Positions 8,471 to 15,932 of a stretch of DNA of 64,000 nt are shown piece by piece (the stretch's first letter is position 1; every line of letters begins with the position of its first letter). The position numbers and the translations under genes are program-made. The DNA comes from an uncultured Clostridia bacterium (GTDB lineage: Bacteria > CAYTYR01 > UBA6262): contig CAYTYR010000004.1 in assembly GCA_964441745.1 (NCBI GenBank), positions 1-64,000 on the forward strand, in the 5' to 3' direction. The notes under the pieces are model-generated. The model saw nothing but the letters and a program-made list of their open reading frames with translations. It did not search any database and was not told the DNA's origin.

Positions 8471-9517
8471 ATGAACTTACATTTGTCTGATTTTGATTAT
8501 AATCTTCCGCCAGAACTTATTGCTCAGACTCCTGCCAAAGAACGCGACCAATCCCAATTACTGATCGTAAATAAGAGTTCTGAAAATATTGAGCATTCCA
8601 AATTTGACCGGATCATTGATCATTTGGGCCAGAATGACATCTTGGTTATCAATAATGCCCGGGTCATTCCGGCGCGGCTTTATGGCTATAAAAAAACCGG
8701 AGGCAAAGTAGAAATATTGCTGCTCAGGAAAATAGGCGCTAATGCCCGTCTCTGGGAAGCATTGGTCACTAATGCGCGCAAATTTAAGCCAAAAGATAAG
8801 ATTTATTTTAAAGATGAAACCCTGGAAGCAGAGATCAAGGAAAAAGGCGCTGAAGGCAAGGTGATCTTGTTTTTTAATACGCCCGATTTCCATAATATCC
8901 TGGCCAGGATAGGGAAGATGCCTCTGCCGCCTTATATCAAACGTGTGGCTGGGGAAGAAGATAAAGACAGGTATCAAACTATTTACGCGCAAAAAGAAGG
9001 GGCGGTAGCCGCTCCCACGGCGGGGTTGCATTTTACCCCGTCATTATTGGAAACGATCAAGTCTAAAGGAATAAAAATCGTACCCATCACCCTTTATGTC
9101 GGCATGGGGACCTTTATGCCGGTACGGACAGAGGATCTTACCCAGCACAAAATGGAAACTGAATTTTATGAAATACCGGAAGATTCGGCCCGGGCGATCA
9201 ACCAGGCAATTAAGGATGGCCAGAATATAGTATCAGTGGGAACGACAACAGTGCGAGCGCTGGAAAGTGCCGCCATGGAAAGAGACGGAACCTGGTTTGT
9301 GGCCGGTGGTAATAATAGTACGGAGATCTTTATTTATCCTGGATATGAATTCAAGATAGTTAAGAAGCTGATCACTAATTTCCATTTACCAAAATCAACA
9401 CTCTTGATGCTGGTGTCTGCATTTGCCGGAGCGGAAACGATTAAGAAGGCGTATCAAATAGCGATAGAAGAGAAATACCGCTTCTTCTCCTATGGCGACG
9501 CCATGTTTATTAGATAG
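8471..9517 (+). CDS. queA: S-adenosylmethionine:tRNA ribosyltransferase-isomerase
   Basis: DFDYNLPPELIAQ, MPLPPYI, AAPTAGLHF, TNFHLPKSTL, YRFFSYGDAM. Confidence 0.98.
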   Translation: MNLHLSDFDYNLPPELIAQTPAKERDQSQLLIVNKSSENIEHSKFDRIIDHLGQNDILVINNARVIPARLYGYKKTGGKVEILLLRKIGANARLWEALVTNARKFKPKDKIYFKDETLEAEIKEKGAEGKVILFFNTPDFHNILARIGKMPLPPYIKRVAGEEDKDRYQTIYAQKEGAVAAPTAGLHFTPSLLETIKSKGIKIVPITLYVGMGTFMPVRTEDLTQHKMETEFYEIPEDSARAINQAIKDGQNIVSVGTTTVRALESAAMERDGTWFVAGGNNSTEIFIYPGYEFKIVKKLITNFHLPKSTLLMLVSAFAGAETIKKAYQIAIEEKYRFFSYGDAMFIR

Positions 9518-9568
9518 TGGTAAAGTGATCGAGTGGTAGAGTGAAGGTAAGGGAAATAATATTGTATA

Positions 9569-9598
9569 TTGCTTTTTATTATCTTTTTATGATACTAT
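9569..9598 (+). promoter_or_regulatory. Putative sigma70-type promoter of the trehalose operon
   Basis: TTGCTT (9569) ... TG-a-TACTAT (9590-9598), immediately before the structured leader. Confidence 0.45.
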
Positions 9599-9610
9599 AA
9601 AAAAAAGAAT

Positions 9611-9711
9611 GCAATATACCGCAATTCAGGGTCCGGAGCAAATCCGGAGGATATAGAGATGATGGTCGGGCCGCCGTCTAGAGGTTAATCTAGATAGCGG
9701 TTCTTGCTTTT
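9611..9711 (+). ncRNA. Riboswitch-like 5' leader (resembles the nhaA-I / Li+-Na+ class) with an overlapping terminator
   Basis: GGGT-CCGGA(gcaaa)TCCGG hairpin, then TGGTCGGGCCGCC; its 3' end overlaps hairpin CCGCCGTCTAGA/TCTAGATAGCGG followed by TTCTTGCTTTT; GGAGG RBS follows. The class assignment is from recall of the motif, not a search. Confidence 0.6.
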
Positions 9712-9722
9712 ATGGAGGAGTA

Positions 9723-11963
9723 ATGAAAAGGATTTTGTTGTTTTTATTGCCTATTTTAATCATTGTGGCAGCGGTTTTTACCGTTTTCGGCATAGTCCAG
9801 GTGAAGATAGAGCAGGAAAAATTGATGGACGAGCTATACCGCAAAGCTAAATCTGTTGCTGAGACCACTGAGGTATCGGCCCAGTATATTATCAAGAATA
9901 ACGATAAAAAGTCCGCGCGCCGGCTAGTTGACGGATTCCAAAAAAGAGAACGGCTCCAAGGCTGCGTGCTATATGATAAAGATGCCAGGATATTAGCTAT
10001 AACTGAACGTATCTCTGAGTGGCAGGAAAAAGATAAGAGCTATTTAAATCAGGTCATTGAAAATAAACAGCTGGAAGCCGGCATGCAAAAATTTAAAGAC
10101 TTGTCTGTTTACAGTTATGCCATACCAGTGCTTGATGACAATGAGAAAGTAATCGGAGTCGTTGAGCTGATCTATGATACTTCCTATGTCTATACTCGTT
10201 TAACGGTGCTTTGGAAGAATATTAGTATTACCTTAAGTATTATTGTTTTGTTGATTATCATTATCGTTTTGCTGATCCAGCGGCAGATATTTGTCCTGCC
10301 GGTAAAAAGACTGACCGAATGGTTCCATCTCTTCCAACAAGGGGAAACAGATGAACAGCATCCGATCAAAGATAAAGGAGAGCTGGGTAAGTTAGCAAAT
10401 GAAGTTGAACAGGTAGCCTTAAGCCTGCGGGTAGCCAGAAAAACTATATCCGGGGAGGCTCAGGTTAGATTAAAAATTGATGATCATTGGACGGAAACCA
10501 AATTACGGGACCTGGTCCTGGCCAAGCTGGGAGAAAATGCTTTGTATGTAGTCTCCAACAGGGAACCATATATGCATGTTCTTGATGAGATCACTGGCAA
10601 AGCTAAATGGACCCGCCCCGCCAGCGGGGTAGTGACTGCTTTAGATCCGGTATTAAGGGCTTGCGGCGGCACCTGGGTCGCTCATGGCAGCGGTAATGCC
10701 GATAAGAAATTTGTTAATTCCAAAAATAAGTTGGGAGTCCCCCCTGATGATAACCGCTATATCTTGAAAAGAGTGTGGCTCAGTAAGGCGGAAGAAGAAG
10801 GCTATTATTATGGTTTTGCCAATGAAGGATTATGGCCTCTTTGCCATGTGACTCATACCCGGCCGGTATTCAGGGAAGAAGACTGGAAAATGTACCAGCG
10901 GGTCAATCAGAAATTTGCTGATTCGATCCTGGAGGAGTTGCCGGCTAAAAACCCTTTAATTTTTATTCAGGATTATCACTTTACCTTGCTCCCTTTGATG
11001 ATCAAGGAAAGCCGTCCTGATGCCACCGTAGCTTTATTCTGGCATATCCCCTGGCCTAACCCGGAAGTTTTTTCCATTTGCCCGTATTACCGGGAAATAC
11101 TGGATGGTATGCTGGGGTGTGATCTGATCGGTTTCCATGTGCAGGTGCATTGTAATAATTTCCTGGATACTGCTAACCGCTTGATTGAATCACGGGTAGA
11201 TACTGAAAAATTCAGTATTGTCCGGGCTGGCCGGGAAACAGTGATCAAGCCATTCCCGATCAGCGTAGCTGACGCAGGCAACAAAGATAAGGTGGAAGAG
11301 CTGAGCCAGCAGATCGCGAAAATAAAGATTGATCTTGAACTATCCGGTAAAATTATTGGACTGGGCGTGGAAAGAATCGATTATACCAAAGGCTTGTTGG
11401 AAAGGATCCAGGCTATTGACCGGTTTTTTGAAAGGAATCCTCACTACAAGGGCAAAGTTGTCTTTGTACAATTGGCCGCTCCCAGCCGCAGTCATATCAA
11501 AAGGTATCATGACCTGATGGGAGAAATAGATGAGCTGGTGGAAAAAATCAACTGGAAATATTCAGATACCAGCTGGGCGCCGATCATTTACCTGAAACGG
11601 CACTTTTCCCCGGAAGAGATACTGCCTTATTATAAATTAGCGGATTTTTGTGTGGTCAGTTCGCTTCATGATGGCATGAACCTGGTAGCCAAAGAATACG
11701 TAGCGGCAAAGGATGATCTGCAGGGAAGCCTGATCCTGAGCCGTTTTACCGGGGCCGCCAAAGAACTGGACCAGGCGATCCAGATCAATCCTTATTCCAT
11801 AGAAGAATTTGCCGCAGCTATCAGGCAGGCTATTGAAATGCCTAAGGAAGAACAAACCCGGCGGATGGGATTAATGCGCAAAGTGGTGCAGGAAAATAAT
11901 GTCTATAAGTGGGCCGGCACTATAATCAGTGAGCTAACTGCGCTGAAAAAGGAAACAAAATGA
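9723..11963 (+). CDS. otsA: Trehalose-6-phosphate synthase (GT20) fused to an N-terminal TM-extracytoplasmic sensor-TM-HAMP module
   Basis: GT20 motifs VVSNREP, SGVVTAL, FANEGLWPLCH, QDYH, FWHIPWP, ERIDYTKG, DGMNLVAKEY; ~250-aa N-terminal extension with two TM helices and a HAMP-like PVKRL...GELGKLANEVEQV. Confidence 0.92.
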   Translation: MKRILLFLLPILIIVAAVFTVFGIVQVKIEQEKLMDELYRKAKSVAETTEVSAQYIIKNNDKKSARRLVDGFQKRERLQGCVLYDKDARILAITERISEWQEKDKSYLNQVIENKQLEAGMQKFKDLSVYSYAIPVLDDNEKVIGVVELIYDTSYVYTRLTVLWKNISITLSIIVLLIIIIVLLIQRQIFVLPVKRLTEWFHLFQQGETDEQHPIKDKGELGKLANEVEQVALSLRVARKTISGEAQVRLKIDDHWTETKLRDLVLAKLGENALYVVSNREPYMHVLDEITGKAKWTRPASGVVTALDPVLRACGGTWVAHGSGNADKKFVNSKNKLGVPPDDNRYILKRVWLSKAEEEGYYYGFANEGLWPLCHVTHTRPVFREEDWKMYQRVNQKFADSILEELPAKNPLIFIQDYHFTLLPLMIKESRPDATVALFWHIPWPNPEVFSICPYYREILDGMLGCDLIGFHVQVHCNNFLDTANRLIESRVDTEKFSIVRAGRETVIKPFPISVADAGNKDKVEELSQQIAKIKIDLELSGKIIGLGVERIDYTKGLLERIQAIDRFFERNPHYKGKVVFVQLAAPSRSHIKRYHDLMGEIDELVEKINWKYSDTSWAPIIYLKRHFSPEEILPYYKLADFCVVSSLHDGMNLVAKEYVAAKDDLQGSLILSRFTGAAKELDQAIQINPYSIEEFAAAIRQAIEMPKEEQTRRMGLMRKVVQENNVYKWAGTIISELTALKKETK

Positions 11964-12751
11964 AATATTTTCTGGCCCAGCAGGAAAAGGTTTATGCCCG
12001 GATCCGGGGCAGGAAAATATATCTTTTATTAGACTATGACGGGACGATCGCGCCCATCGCTCCCAAACCAGAGCTGGCAGCGCTGTCACCGGGAACCAGA
12101 ACTTTGTTAAAAAAGTTGGCAAATCACCCCCAGTGCGAATTGGCGATCATCAGCGGCCGGTCTTTGGATAATATTAAAAAAATGGTTAAGATCCCTGGAA
12201 TAATTTATGCTGGTAATCACGGCCTCGAAGTGGATTACCGCGGCCGGCGTTTAGAATTCAGCCAGGACCGGGCTTTCCCGGAGCTGGTGAGACAAATCCA
12301 GGCTGGCTTAACCCGGCGGTTGAAAGGAATCAAAGGTGTTTTAATTGAGAATAAAAAGGTAACCATTTCTTTGCATTACCGGCTGGTTGCCGGGAGGCAG
12401 CGGCGTAATGTTAAGACTATTTTCAAAAAACTGATAAAACCATATCAAGACCGCAGGCAAGTGATGGTGACTGCAGGTAAGATGGTGCTGGAGATCCGGC
12501 CTCCCGTAAAATGGGGTAAAGGTGATTTTGCCAAATGGCTGCTGCCGGCAACAGCCTGGAAAGAGAACAAAACTGCGGTTTTCTATTTCGGCGATGATCG
12601 TACTGATGAAGAAGTTTTTAAAGTATTAAAAGGCCAGGCCTATGCTATAATAGTAGGCAAGGGAAAGAGATCTGCCGCTGAATATTATCTTCAGAGTCCT
12701 GCTGAAGTCAGTAAAGTATTAACCCGGATCGCCAACAGTTTGGAGGATTAG
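11960..12751 (+). CDS. otsB: Trehalose-6-phosphate phosphatase (HAD)
   Basis: DYDGT, ISGR, GNHGLE, GKMVLEIRP, GDDRTDE; overlaps the otsA stop. Confidence 0.95.
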   Translation: MKYFLAQQEKVYARIRGRKIYLLLDYDGTIAPIAPKPELAALSPGTRTLLKKLANHPQCELAIISGRSLDNIKKMVKIPGIIYAGNHGLEVDYRGRRLEFSQDRAFPELVRQIQAGLTRRLKGIKGVLIENKKVTISLHYRLVAGRQRRNVKTIFKKLIKPYQDRRQVMVTAGKMVLEIRPPVKWGKGDFAKWLLPATAWKENKTAVFYFGDDRTDEEVFKVLKGQAYAIIVGKGKRSAAEYYLQSPAEVSKVLTRIANSLED

Positions 12752-12758
12752 TATCGAC

Positions 12759-13436
12759 ATGAACAAGATACTGAAAGCGACTGAACCATTCAGGTTTGTG
12801 ACCAGGCTCCATTTAACTGAACTAACCGGATTAAAAGCCAGTAACCTGCAGGAAATGGTTGATATCCTCAAAGAAGTGCCAGGTTCCTGTATTTATCATC
12901 ATACTCATCGTTTTCTGCAGCAACACCAGCATATTTCTCCTGAGCCGCCCAATGATTTTGCCTACTGGGTATCCAACATCTTGGTGGAGGAAGAGCTGGG
13001 TGAAAGTTTGGCTAGTATCGATGTGGTCCAGTTCACTTCCATCCGGCAGTTAAGGGAAAAGATCATCCAAACCATTGCAAGTTATCTTAAAACACATCCT
13101 TCAGCCAGTAAGCGTTTTGCCGCCGCCGGGGATGAATTTTACTTTATCAAATCAGTTAGTTTTATTGTCCCGACAAAATATGAAGTAAATGACCTTCCCG
13201 GGTTCAATGAAGTTCTGACCAAAATCACCACGGATGCCGTCTATTTCCATATTTTTGAATCAAGGCTGAGATTAGGGAAGAAAGACAATGATTTTTCTAA
13301 CTGGTTCGAACATGCGCTCCAGGAAAAAGAATTAGCCGGTAAAATATCCCGGCTGGATCCCTACACTCATACCATGGAAGAACTGCGGGAAGCCATAATC
13401 CGGCTCATAGAAAAGAGGATCAACCGCAATGGCTAA
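12759..13436 (+). CDS. DUF5752-like protein (two internal repeats)
   Basis: IYHH..NDFAYWV..LGE.LA and VYFH..NDFSNWF..LA..I repeats; sits before treT. Confidence 0.75.
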   Translation: MNKILKATEPFRFVTRLHLTELTGLKASNLQEMVDILKEVPGSCIYHHTHRFLQQHQHISPEPPNDFAYWVSNILVEEELGESLASIDVVQFTSIRQLREKIIQTIASYLKTHPSASKRFAAAGDEFYFIKSVSFIVPTKYEVNDLPGFNEVLTKITTDAVYFHIFESRLRLGKKDNDFSNWFEHALQEKELAGKISRLDPYTHTMEELREAIIRLIEKRINRNG

Positions 13437-14640
13437 AATAGAAGATTACATACCCATTACTGGACAATCAACCATCGATGACCTGCGGCTCCTGGCTGAA
13501 AAACTCCAGGGTAAAGTGGTGCAGACTATCAATTCCACCGCCGTGGGCGGAGGCGTGGCAGAAATCCTTAACCAGATGGTGCCCTTACTCCAGGAATTAG
13601 GAGTTGATGCCCATTGGGACCTGATCAAGGGAGGCATGGAGTTCTTTGATGTGACCAAAAAAATGCATAATGCCCTGCATGGCCGGGCCGAAGATATTAC
13701 CCAGCATGATTTTGATGTCTTTATGGAAACCAGCCAGCGTAATGTGGAAGAAGTGAAGATCTATGGCGATATTGTCTTCATCCATGATCCCCAGCCGATC
13801 GGATTGATTAAAAAGAAAAGCGGTAACAAATGGATCTGGCGCTGTCATATAGATGTTTCCAGCCCGGATCAGAAAGTATGGCGGTTCCTGCATGAGTTTA
13901 TTTCCCAGTATGATGCGGCTGTTTTTTCTGCTCCCAGTTTTTCTCCAGTTCTGCCGATCAGGCAATTCCTGATCTCGCCTTCGATCGATCCTTTAAGTGA
14001 CAAGAATAAGGAGCTCCCGGCTGAAACGATTAAAGCGATACAGGATAAATACGGGATTGTCCAGGATAAGCCGATCATTACCCAGATCTCCCGTTTTGAC
14101 CGTCTGAAGGACCCGGTTGGCGTGATCGAAGCCTATCGCCTGGTAAAAAAATATATCGACTGCCAGCTGATCCTGGCTGGCGGTACCGCCAGTGATGACC
14201 CTGAAGGGGTAGAGGTTTTTGAAGAAGTGAAAGAAAAGGCCAAAGATGATCCGGATATCCATATTTTAATGATGCCGCATAATAATATTGAGGTCAATGC
14301 TTTACAAAGGCTTTCTACGGTTATCCTGCAAAAATCCCTTAAAGAAGGGTTTGGCCTGACTGTAGCTGAAGCCTTGTGGAAGGGGAAGCCAGTAGTGGCC
14401 TCCAATGTAGGAGGAATCCCTTTGCAGGTCAAGCATAAATATTCCGGTTTGTTATGTCATTCAGTTGAGGGCGCTGCTTTTGCTATCAAACAGCTTCTTA
14501 ATAATCCTGGTTATGCTAAAAAATTAGGAGAAAGTGGCCGGGAGCATATTAAGAACAATTATCTGCTCACCCGGCACTTAAGAGACTATATGCTGTTGTT
14601 TTTGTCCCTCTATCATGGTGAGGATGTCGTTTATCTTTAA
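13429..14640 (+). CDS. treT: Trehalose synthase TreT-like glycosyltransferase (GT4)
   Basis: NSTAVGGGVAEIL, IHDPQP, WRCHID, PSIDPLSDKN, SRFD..KDP, EGFGLTVAEALWKG. Confidence 0.92.
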   Translation: MAKIEDYIPITGQSTIDDLRLLAEKLQGKVVQTINSTAVGGGVAEILNQMVPLLQELGVDAHWDLIKGGMEFFDVTKKMHNALHGRAEDITQHDFDVFMETSQRNVEEVKIYGDIVFIHDPQPIGLIKKKSGNKWIWRCHIDVSSPDQKVWRFLHEFISQYDAAVFSAPSFSPVLPIRQFLISPSIDPLSDKNKELPAETIKAIQDKYGIVQDKPIITQISRFDRLKDPVGVIEAYRLVKKYIDCQLILAGGTASDDPEGVEVFEEVKEKAKDDPDIHILMMPHNNIEVNALQRLSTVILQKSLKEGFGLTVAEALWKGKPVVASNVGGIPLQVKHKYSGLLCHSVEGAAFAIKQLLNNPGYAKKLGESGREHIKNNYLLTRHLRDYMLLFLSLYHGEDVVYL

Positions 14641-14653
14641 ATTGTAATTTTAG

Positions 14654-14682
14654 TTGAATTTTACCAAGTTTATGTTTATAAT
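14654..14682 (+). promoter_or_regulatory. Sigma70-type promoter of tgt-yajC
   Basis: TTGAAT-17 nt-TATAAT. Confidence 0.65.
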
Positions 14683-14701
14683 ATCTTAACCCGCCTTTTA
14701 G

Positions 14702-15932
<1,231 letters not shown>

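Follow-up and report, generated by a model that had tools for sequence, protein, structure and literature searches.

The nhaA-I motif RNA reportedly goes back to Weinberg et al. in 2017. In the parts of White et al. 2022 (PMC9646797) drawn on here, nhaA-I RNAs are described as Li+-activated ON switches (Li+-I) that lie mostly before nhaA and that, for the most part, are expected to act at the ribosome-binding site; the hosts given are Alpha-, Beta-, Gamma- and Deltaproteobacteria. Rare variants that carry a terminator, placed there in Deltaproteobacteria only and before genes without an assigned function, were activated by Na+ in single-round transcription and were named Na+-II. The Desulfobulbus propionicus 'hypo' construct has a C at position 54 in place of the usual U, and Li+, Na+ and NH4+ all elicit a response from its C54U mutant. 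The same source calls trehalose-6-phosphate synthase 'occasionally associated' with the family, offers Li+ or Na+ as the signal, and already puts forward cation-triggered osmoprotectant synthesis as a hypothesis for this association. In the DUF1646 motif, the Na+-I class, some members control the osmoprotectant-related genes dapB, ablA and eam, according to the sections used of a further report (White et al. 2022, PMC9337991). Nothing relevant on a solved structure of a Li+ or Na+ riboswitch turned up among the best 15 of 357 papers matched in a literature search. Because PMC9646797 already describes the family, its mechanism and its link to this gene, what the present locus adds is incremental.

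The window, that is, the whole 64-kb stretch of DNA analysed, was scanned with Rfam 15 at gathering thresholds, and positions 9500-9800 were scanned a second time permissively, at E <= 10. At gathering thresholds the window gave three matches, to 23S rRNA, 5S rRNA and nhaA-I (RF03057). The RF03057 match (9629-9679, + strand) spans model positions 1-55 of 55 and scores 40.7 bits where the gathering threshold is 37, an excess of 3.7 bits and no more. Its E-value is 1.2e-4 for the 64-kb window against 4227 Rfam families and 5.6e-7 for the 301-nt leader, and with a covariance model built in this analysis (R1) the aptamer scores 56.6 bits. The resemblance to nhaA-I that the earlier note had pointed out is thus confirmed by a covariance-model match. 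In the permissive scan, the only other families listed besides RF03057 were four unrelated ones, matched weakly and no better than by chance. Since no other riboswitch family was listed at E <= 10, three further families that had been singled out for comparison, DUF1646 (Na+-I), nhaA-II and c-di-AMP, are taken as non-matching, both in the leader at 9500-9800 (E <= 10) and in the window at gathering thresholds.

Direct reading of the leader recovered every motif on which the earlier note had built: GGGT at 9629-9632 (+), CCGGA (9633-9637) pairing with TCCGG (9643-9647), TGGTCGGGCCGCC at 9663-9675, ACCGC at 9618-9622 and GCGGT at 9697-9701. The hairpin at 9671-9700, after which stands the tail TTCTTGCTTTT (9701-9711), extends outward to 9668-9703. 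The GC fraction is 0.58 at 9625-9674 and 0.18-0.20 at 9550-9624. For the 112-nt leader the predicted fold has an energy of -37.9 kcal/mol (z = -2.73), equalled in stability by 2 of 200 shuffles. The coordinates of these and the neighbouring features are collected in Table 1.

Table 1. Features of the leader and trehalose operon in the window, with members of an aptamer-linked membrane-protein family at other loci.
Feature	Coordinates	Strand	Basis
Candidate promoter: TTGCTT 9569-9574, 18-nt spacer, TG 9590-9591, TACTAT 9593-9598	9569..9598	+	inferred by eye, low confidence
nhaA-I (RF03057) aptamer: GGGU, P1, AGG linker, P2 with loop CGGGCC	9629..9679	+	Rfam covariance model
P1 hairpin CCGGA / UCCGG, loop GCAAA	9633..9647	+	RF03057 alignment, folding
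P2: UGAUGGU 9660-9666, loop CGGGCC 9667-9672, GCCGUCU 9673-9679	9660..9679	+	RF03057 alignment
Predicted intrinsic-terminator expression platform: stem 9668-9682 / 9689-9703, loop GGUUAA, U-rich tail to 9711	9668..9711	+	folding, overlap rule
Shine-Dalgarno GGAGGA 9714-9719 and otsA start ATG 9723-9725	9714..9725	+	read in sequence
Sensor-fused GT20 trehalose-6-phosphate synthase (OtsA-like)	9723..11963	+	Glyco_transf_20, E = 3e-124
Trehalose-phosphatase (OtsB)	11960..12751	+	Trehalose_PPase; TIGR00685 175.9 bits vs cut-off 68
DUF5752 protein	12759..13436	+	PF19027, E = 2.7e-67
TreT-like GT4 trehalose synthase	13429..14640	+	TreT_GT1 and Glycos_transf_1; NF041139 363.8 bits, under cut-off 775
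Operon-closing terminator hairpin, then TATTTTT	14687..14708	+	hairpin in sequence
Pfam-less membrane family members	L012 1618-1965; L054 1628-1969; L052 1619-1978; L008; L053; L056; L024 2620-2949

All strictly conserved nhaA-I positions are retained in the window aptamer (GGGU, AGG and GGUCGGGCCGCC). The core of GGGU, P1, AGG and a P2 closed by GGU...GCC around CGGGCC is present, and across 17 homologues its columns vary little or not at all. In the RF03057 alignment a 9-nt linker follows AGG before P2, and the outermost P2 pair is an unpaired U.U. Across 18 homologous aptamers, changes on both sides were found in 9 of the 14 helix pairs (5/7 in P1, 4/7 in P2). Paired cells made up 94.3% of the 18-aptamer alignment, compared with 84.7% in shuffles and 38-58% when the 3' partners were slid; the alignment had been fitted to a model derived from 17 of the aptamers, and such fitting favours the structure. 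None of 500 shuffles matched the covariation score. One weak match (L016 6166-6233; 11.8 bits, E = 0.35) was omitted from the alignment (A3) as chance. Judged by sequence and covariation, the leader RNA is a genuine member of the published nhaA-I family.

The predicted terminator stem comprises 14 bp with one C.A mismatch, and positions 9668-9679, which form the loop and 3' arm of P2, also belong to the terminator 5' arm. P2 has a predicted energy of -6.9 kcal/mol and the terminator one of -21.3; together with P1, the values are -15.3 (P2) and -29.7 (terminator). Because the terminator outweighs P2 in the absence of added stabilisation, the default state would be OFF: without ligand, the hairpin at 9668-9703 and its U-tail would form and stop RNA polymerase before the start codon. 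A bound cation would hold P2 (9660-9679) shut, the P2 loop and 3' arm would then be unavailable as the terminator 5' arm, and transcription would read through into the operon. We infer this direction of switching from the energies together with the responses published for family members that carry a terminator. A simple terminator scan of 9400-9900 did not call the hairpin at 9668-9703, which fails the rule of that scan because its stem is broken by the C.A mismatch and its U-run is not continuous (UUCUUGCUUUU). The sole terminator-like site called in the same interval, at 9491-9505, lies within the last codons of queA (conserved YGDAMF motif) and is probably coincidental.

Mutually exclusive folds of this kind, arranged as in a transcriptional ON switch, had been claimed for the leader in the earlier note, and the claim holds: aptamer and terminator helices overlap here and in 19 of the 24 collected aptamers in all, counted by a rule that asks for a hairpin and then 6 or more U in 9 nt, with the fold ended at each U-run. 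A cruder first rule gave 14/24 and was confounded by minimum-energy folds running into the U-tract. An overlapping terminator is lacking in five aptamers: L024, the decayed copy, and three that come from a single GC-rich phylum. Seven aptamers have A-U in place of G-C at the P2 pair 41-50, and in four of them position 50 faces an A in the terminator; in C-type terminators the partner is always G if position 50 is paired. These partner changes fit selection acting on both helices.

The alternative pairing of ACCGC with GCGGT, which formed part of the same proposal, stood in one respect and fell in another. Both sequences are present, and the duplex of ACCGC with the terminator 3' arm was predicted at -8.7 kcal/mol in the window and -6.5 in the closest relative. 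As a conserved element, the pairing of 9618-9622 with 9697-9701 was rejected: it was favourable in two of seven otsA leaders and the remaining five resembled shuffles, in a test whose L021 row used the wrong hairpin arm. The pairing is not needed in the model, since P2 itself is the anti-terminator.

Upstream of the aptamer, the TTGCTT/TACTAT layout of the candidate promoter recurs in L018 and L023, relatives too close to be informative, and a consensus promoter scan of 9400-9900 called no promoter. Downstream, the N-terminal ~250 aa of the OtsA-like protein (9723-10480) have a TM / Cache-like / TM / HAMP-like arrangement reminiscent of a histidine-kinase sensor; the sensor-module matches (WalK-like over residues 2-246; Cache; HAMP) are all weak and under their cut-offs. 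The combination of a sensor-fused OtsA with an aptamer suggests two layers of control, one at the RNA and one at the protein. Because OtsA models score under their equivalog cut-offs on the GT20 protein, trehalose is the most likely, though unproven, product. The riboswitch and the trehalose cassette (within 8471-15865) lie between queA and tgt-yajC-secD, genes that are usually neighbours, and the arrangement looks like an insertion of the cassette into that cluster.

The earlier note had made conservation upstream of homologous operons a test of its reading, and in several uncultivated lineages the aptamer with its terminator was indeed found before orthologues of the sensor-OtsA gene. An OtsA protein search returned 36 loci, 13 of them sensor-fused and 23 GT20-only, which with the window makes 14 sensor-fused loci. 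The aptamer lies directly upstream of the gene in five of these 14 (the window, L018, L019, L021 and L023, the last decayed at 31.9 bits). A variant aptamer lies one gene upstream of otsA in L024, and the other eight sensor-fused loci have no aptamer. RNA searches of the phyla around G030, G021 and G015 took in phyla of 14, 2 and 6 genomes, and three more otsA-linked aptamers, from another small phylum, came to light through RNA search (L005, L055 and L057). Altogether, among 17 sensor-fused loci the aptamer precedes otsA eight times directly and once indirectly, and it precedes 0 of 23 GT20-only homologues. The otsA-linked copy is the sole nhaA-I match in the L019 genome, and likewise in that of L021.

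Within the genus, two genomes have an intact otsA switch, and in one genome each it is decayed, deleted or absent; given this loss and decay, it is dispensable. At the deleted site (L016 2677-2830) the 3' tail of the terminator alone has been kept. In the decayed switch (L015/L023; L023 2900-3000) GUGU replaces GGGU and the 3' half of the terminator is lost. The region upstream of otsA in L017 (2740-3000) is a different one and contains no aptamer.

The window's own genome carries a second nhaA-I aptamer, which scores 43.4 bits, has its own terminator and lies before a Pal gene (L001 1501-2168; contig C8 88928-89595). The assignment of the gene product as a Pal lipoprotein rests on TIGR02802 (131 bits against a cut-off of 125), and the aptamer-Pal arrangement is shared with three other genomes of the genus. 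All five other genomes of the genus gave RF03057 matches; in the three remaining genomes of the 9-genome phylum RF03057 was not found. The genes that follow the aptamers in the genus encode OtsA, Pal, a 31-aa membrane peptide and an SPFH protein. The hydrophobic 31-aa peptide gene (MSEKIFVLILL...) follows a terminator-bearing aptamer in three genus genomes (L004 1635-1730, L006 and L010), and in one of these three it is divergent from the otsA aptamer, so that two switches stand back to back.

A further group of targets is a membrane-protein family of ~110-140 aa without a Pfam match, found after 7 of the 24 aptamers and marked by the conserved motif RY(I/V/L)DI..(L/F).G.T....PA. In L024 the gene of this family is split into two ORFs and stands immediately before otsA. 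The 'hypothetical' genes that White et al. 2022 mention for Na+-II may be of this sort. At L036 (381-5369), in a different lineage, the gene of an APC-family permease is headed by a c-di-AMP riboswitch scoring 65.9 bits, and the same strand continues with a small ORF and then otsA-otsB; trehalose genes would thus have a further class of riboswitch upstream of them.

Compared with Li+-I, the window RNA has the same GGGU, P1, AGG, P2 with CGGGCC and U before the loop, and it shares the position in a 5' leader and the predicted ON logic. It differs in using a transcription terminator, whereas Li+-I members, in the published account, are for the most part expected to act at the ribosome-binding site. 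It differs further in belonging to a genome in which nhaA was not detected, and in a host that falls outside the Proteobacterial classes given in that account and belongs to an uncultivated lineage, from a phylum with 9 species genomes in the collection searched. With Na+-II, as characterised in the same portions, it has in common that the 3' part of the aptamer is the left arm of an intrinsic terminator, that the targets are not cation exporters, and that read-through is expected when the ion rises. Unlike Na+-II, the window RNA has U at all candidate P2 positions (39, 42 and 53), and in having U it resembles the C54U mutant of the D. propionicus construct. The two-hairpin architecture is shared with Na+-I in what is used here of PMC9337991, but the P2 loop and lower P1 of the window RNA follow the nhaA-I consensus and the DUF1646 model did not match. 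Taken together, these results make it very probable that the leader is an nhaA-I-family transcriptional ON switch, of the Li+-I / Na+-II class of alkali-cation sensors, heading a four-gene trehalose operon.

Two other readings of the leader have something in their favour. The hairpin and U-tail could be the terminator of queA, with the covariance match arising by chance and the operon controlled in some other way: queA ends at 9517, on the same strand and 150 nt upstream, and the RF03057 score is near its threshold. However, the aptamer and overlapping terminator recur before otsA despite different upstream neighbours, the helices carry compensatory changes, and the E-value of 1.2e-4 applies to the whole window, which leaves this reading very improbable. 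Somewhat less remote, but still quite unlikely, is an nhaA-I-like fold that senses a non-alkali signal (osmotic or protein) or that acts mainly on translation. Specificity does drift within the family in the published data drawn on here (PMC9646797), although every strictly conserved family position is kept in the window aptamer. In minimum-energy folds the U-tail (9704-9711) pairs with the Shine-Dalgarno region (9716-9723), but the pairs involved, A-U and G-U, are weak.

Within the preferred reading, an alkali-cation switch acting through a terminator, a further question concerns the ligand. NhaA (PF06965) had no match in the window's own genome, which is 98.3% complete. The gene behind the aptamer is otsA and no cation transporter, where nhaA-I RNAs typically precede nhaA, and the targets of nhaA-I aptamers in the genus are an envelope and osmotic-stress set rather than a cation-export set. 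Because of these target genes and because no NhaA was found, Na+ is the likelier trigger, and we favour, by a modest balance of probability, Na+ rising under salt stress over Li+. The same switch and mechanism with Li+ as the physiological ligand, trehalose being raised because Li+ perturbs sugar-phosphate metabolism, would differ on the ligand only; we regard it as a serious but rather unlikely reading. On its side, model position 42 (9666, the U before CGGGCC) is U in the window aptamer, the majority nhaA-I state, and the P2 core is identical to that of L009, where a terminator-bearing aptamer precedes a true NhaA gene. Against it stand the NhaA-less genome and the stress-related targets. 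Natural waters, moreover, rarely attain ~30 mM Li+. That figure is about the KD given for Li+-I in the portions used of PMC9646797, where the terminator-bearing family members assayed respond to Na+; a Li+ reading is also offered there for trehalose-6-phosphate synthase. A broad response to Li+, Na+ and NH4+ is possible as well.

Position 54 of the published Na+-II construct most likely corresponds to model position 42; if so, the U of the window RNA, as compared with the published C of Na+-II, counts against Na+. This mapping assumes that the 71-nt Na+-II construct has an offset similar to that of the 73-nt Li+-I construct, whose conserved loop Gs are at positions 56-57. C at model position 42 was found in only two of the 24 aptamers (L056 and L024), both before a gene of the Pfam-less membrane-protein family. 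Since the NhaA-linked L009 copy shares both the P2 core and the terminator with the window aptamer, sequence alone cannot separate the two ligands.

The window RNA gives a sequence-defined example of RNA-level control, as predicted here, of compatible-solute synthesis in an uncultivated lineage, and it extends terminator-type nhaA-I switches beyond the Deltaproteobacteria to which the 2022 paper, in the portions drawn on here, assigns them. Because it combines a terminator, the majority U and a genome without NhaA, it is a convenient test case for Li+ as against Na+ sensing by trehalose-linked members, a question raised in PMC9646797. We tentatively propose that U-bearing, terminator-type aptamers in NhaA-less, small-genome uncultivated phyla head a salt-stress regulon, an idea we hold at somewhat less than even odds. 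Such a regulon would comprise the sensor-fused OtsA operon, Pal, the SPFH protein, the 31-aa membrane peptide and the ~115-aa Pfam-less membrane proteins. If these aptamers respond physiologically to Na+, the published C/U rule would fail to separate Li+ from Na+ sensors, and outside the Proteobacteria the nhaA-I class would serve mainly to sense osmotic stress.
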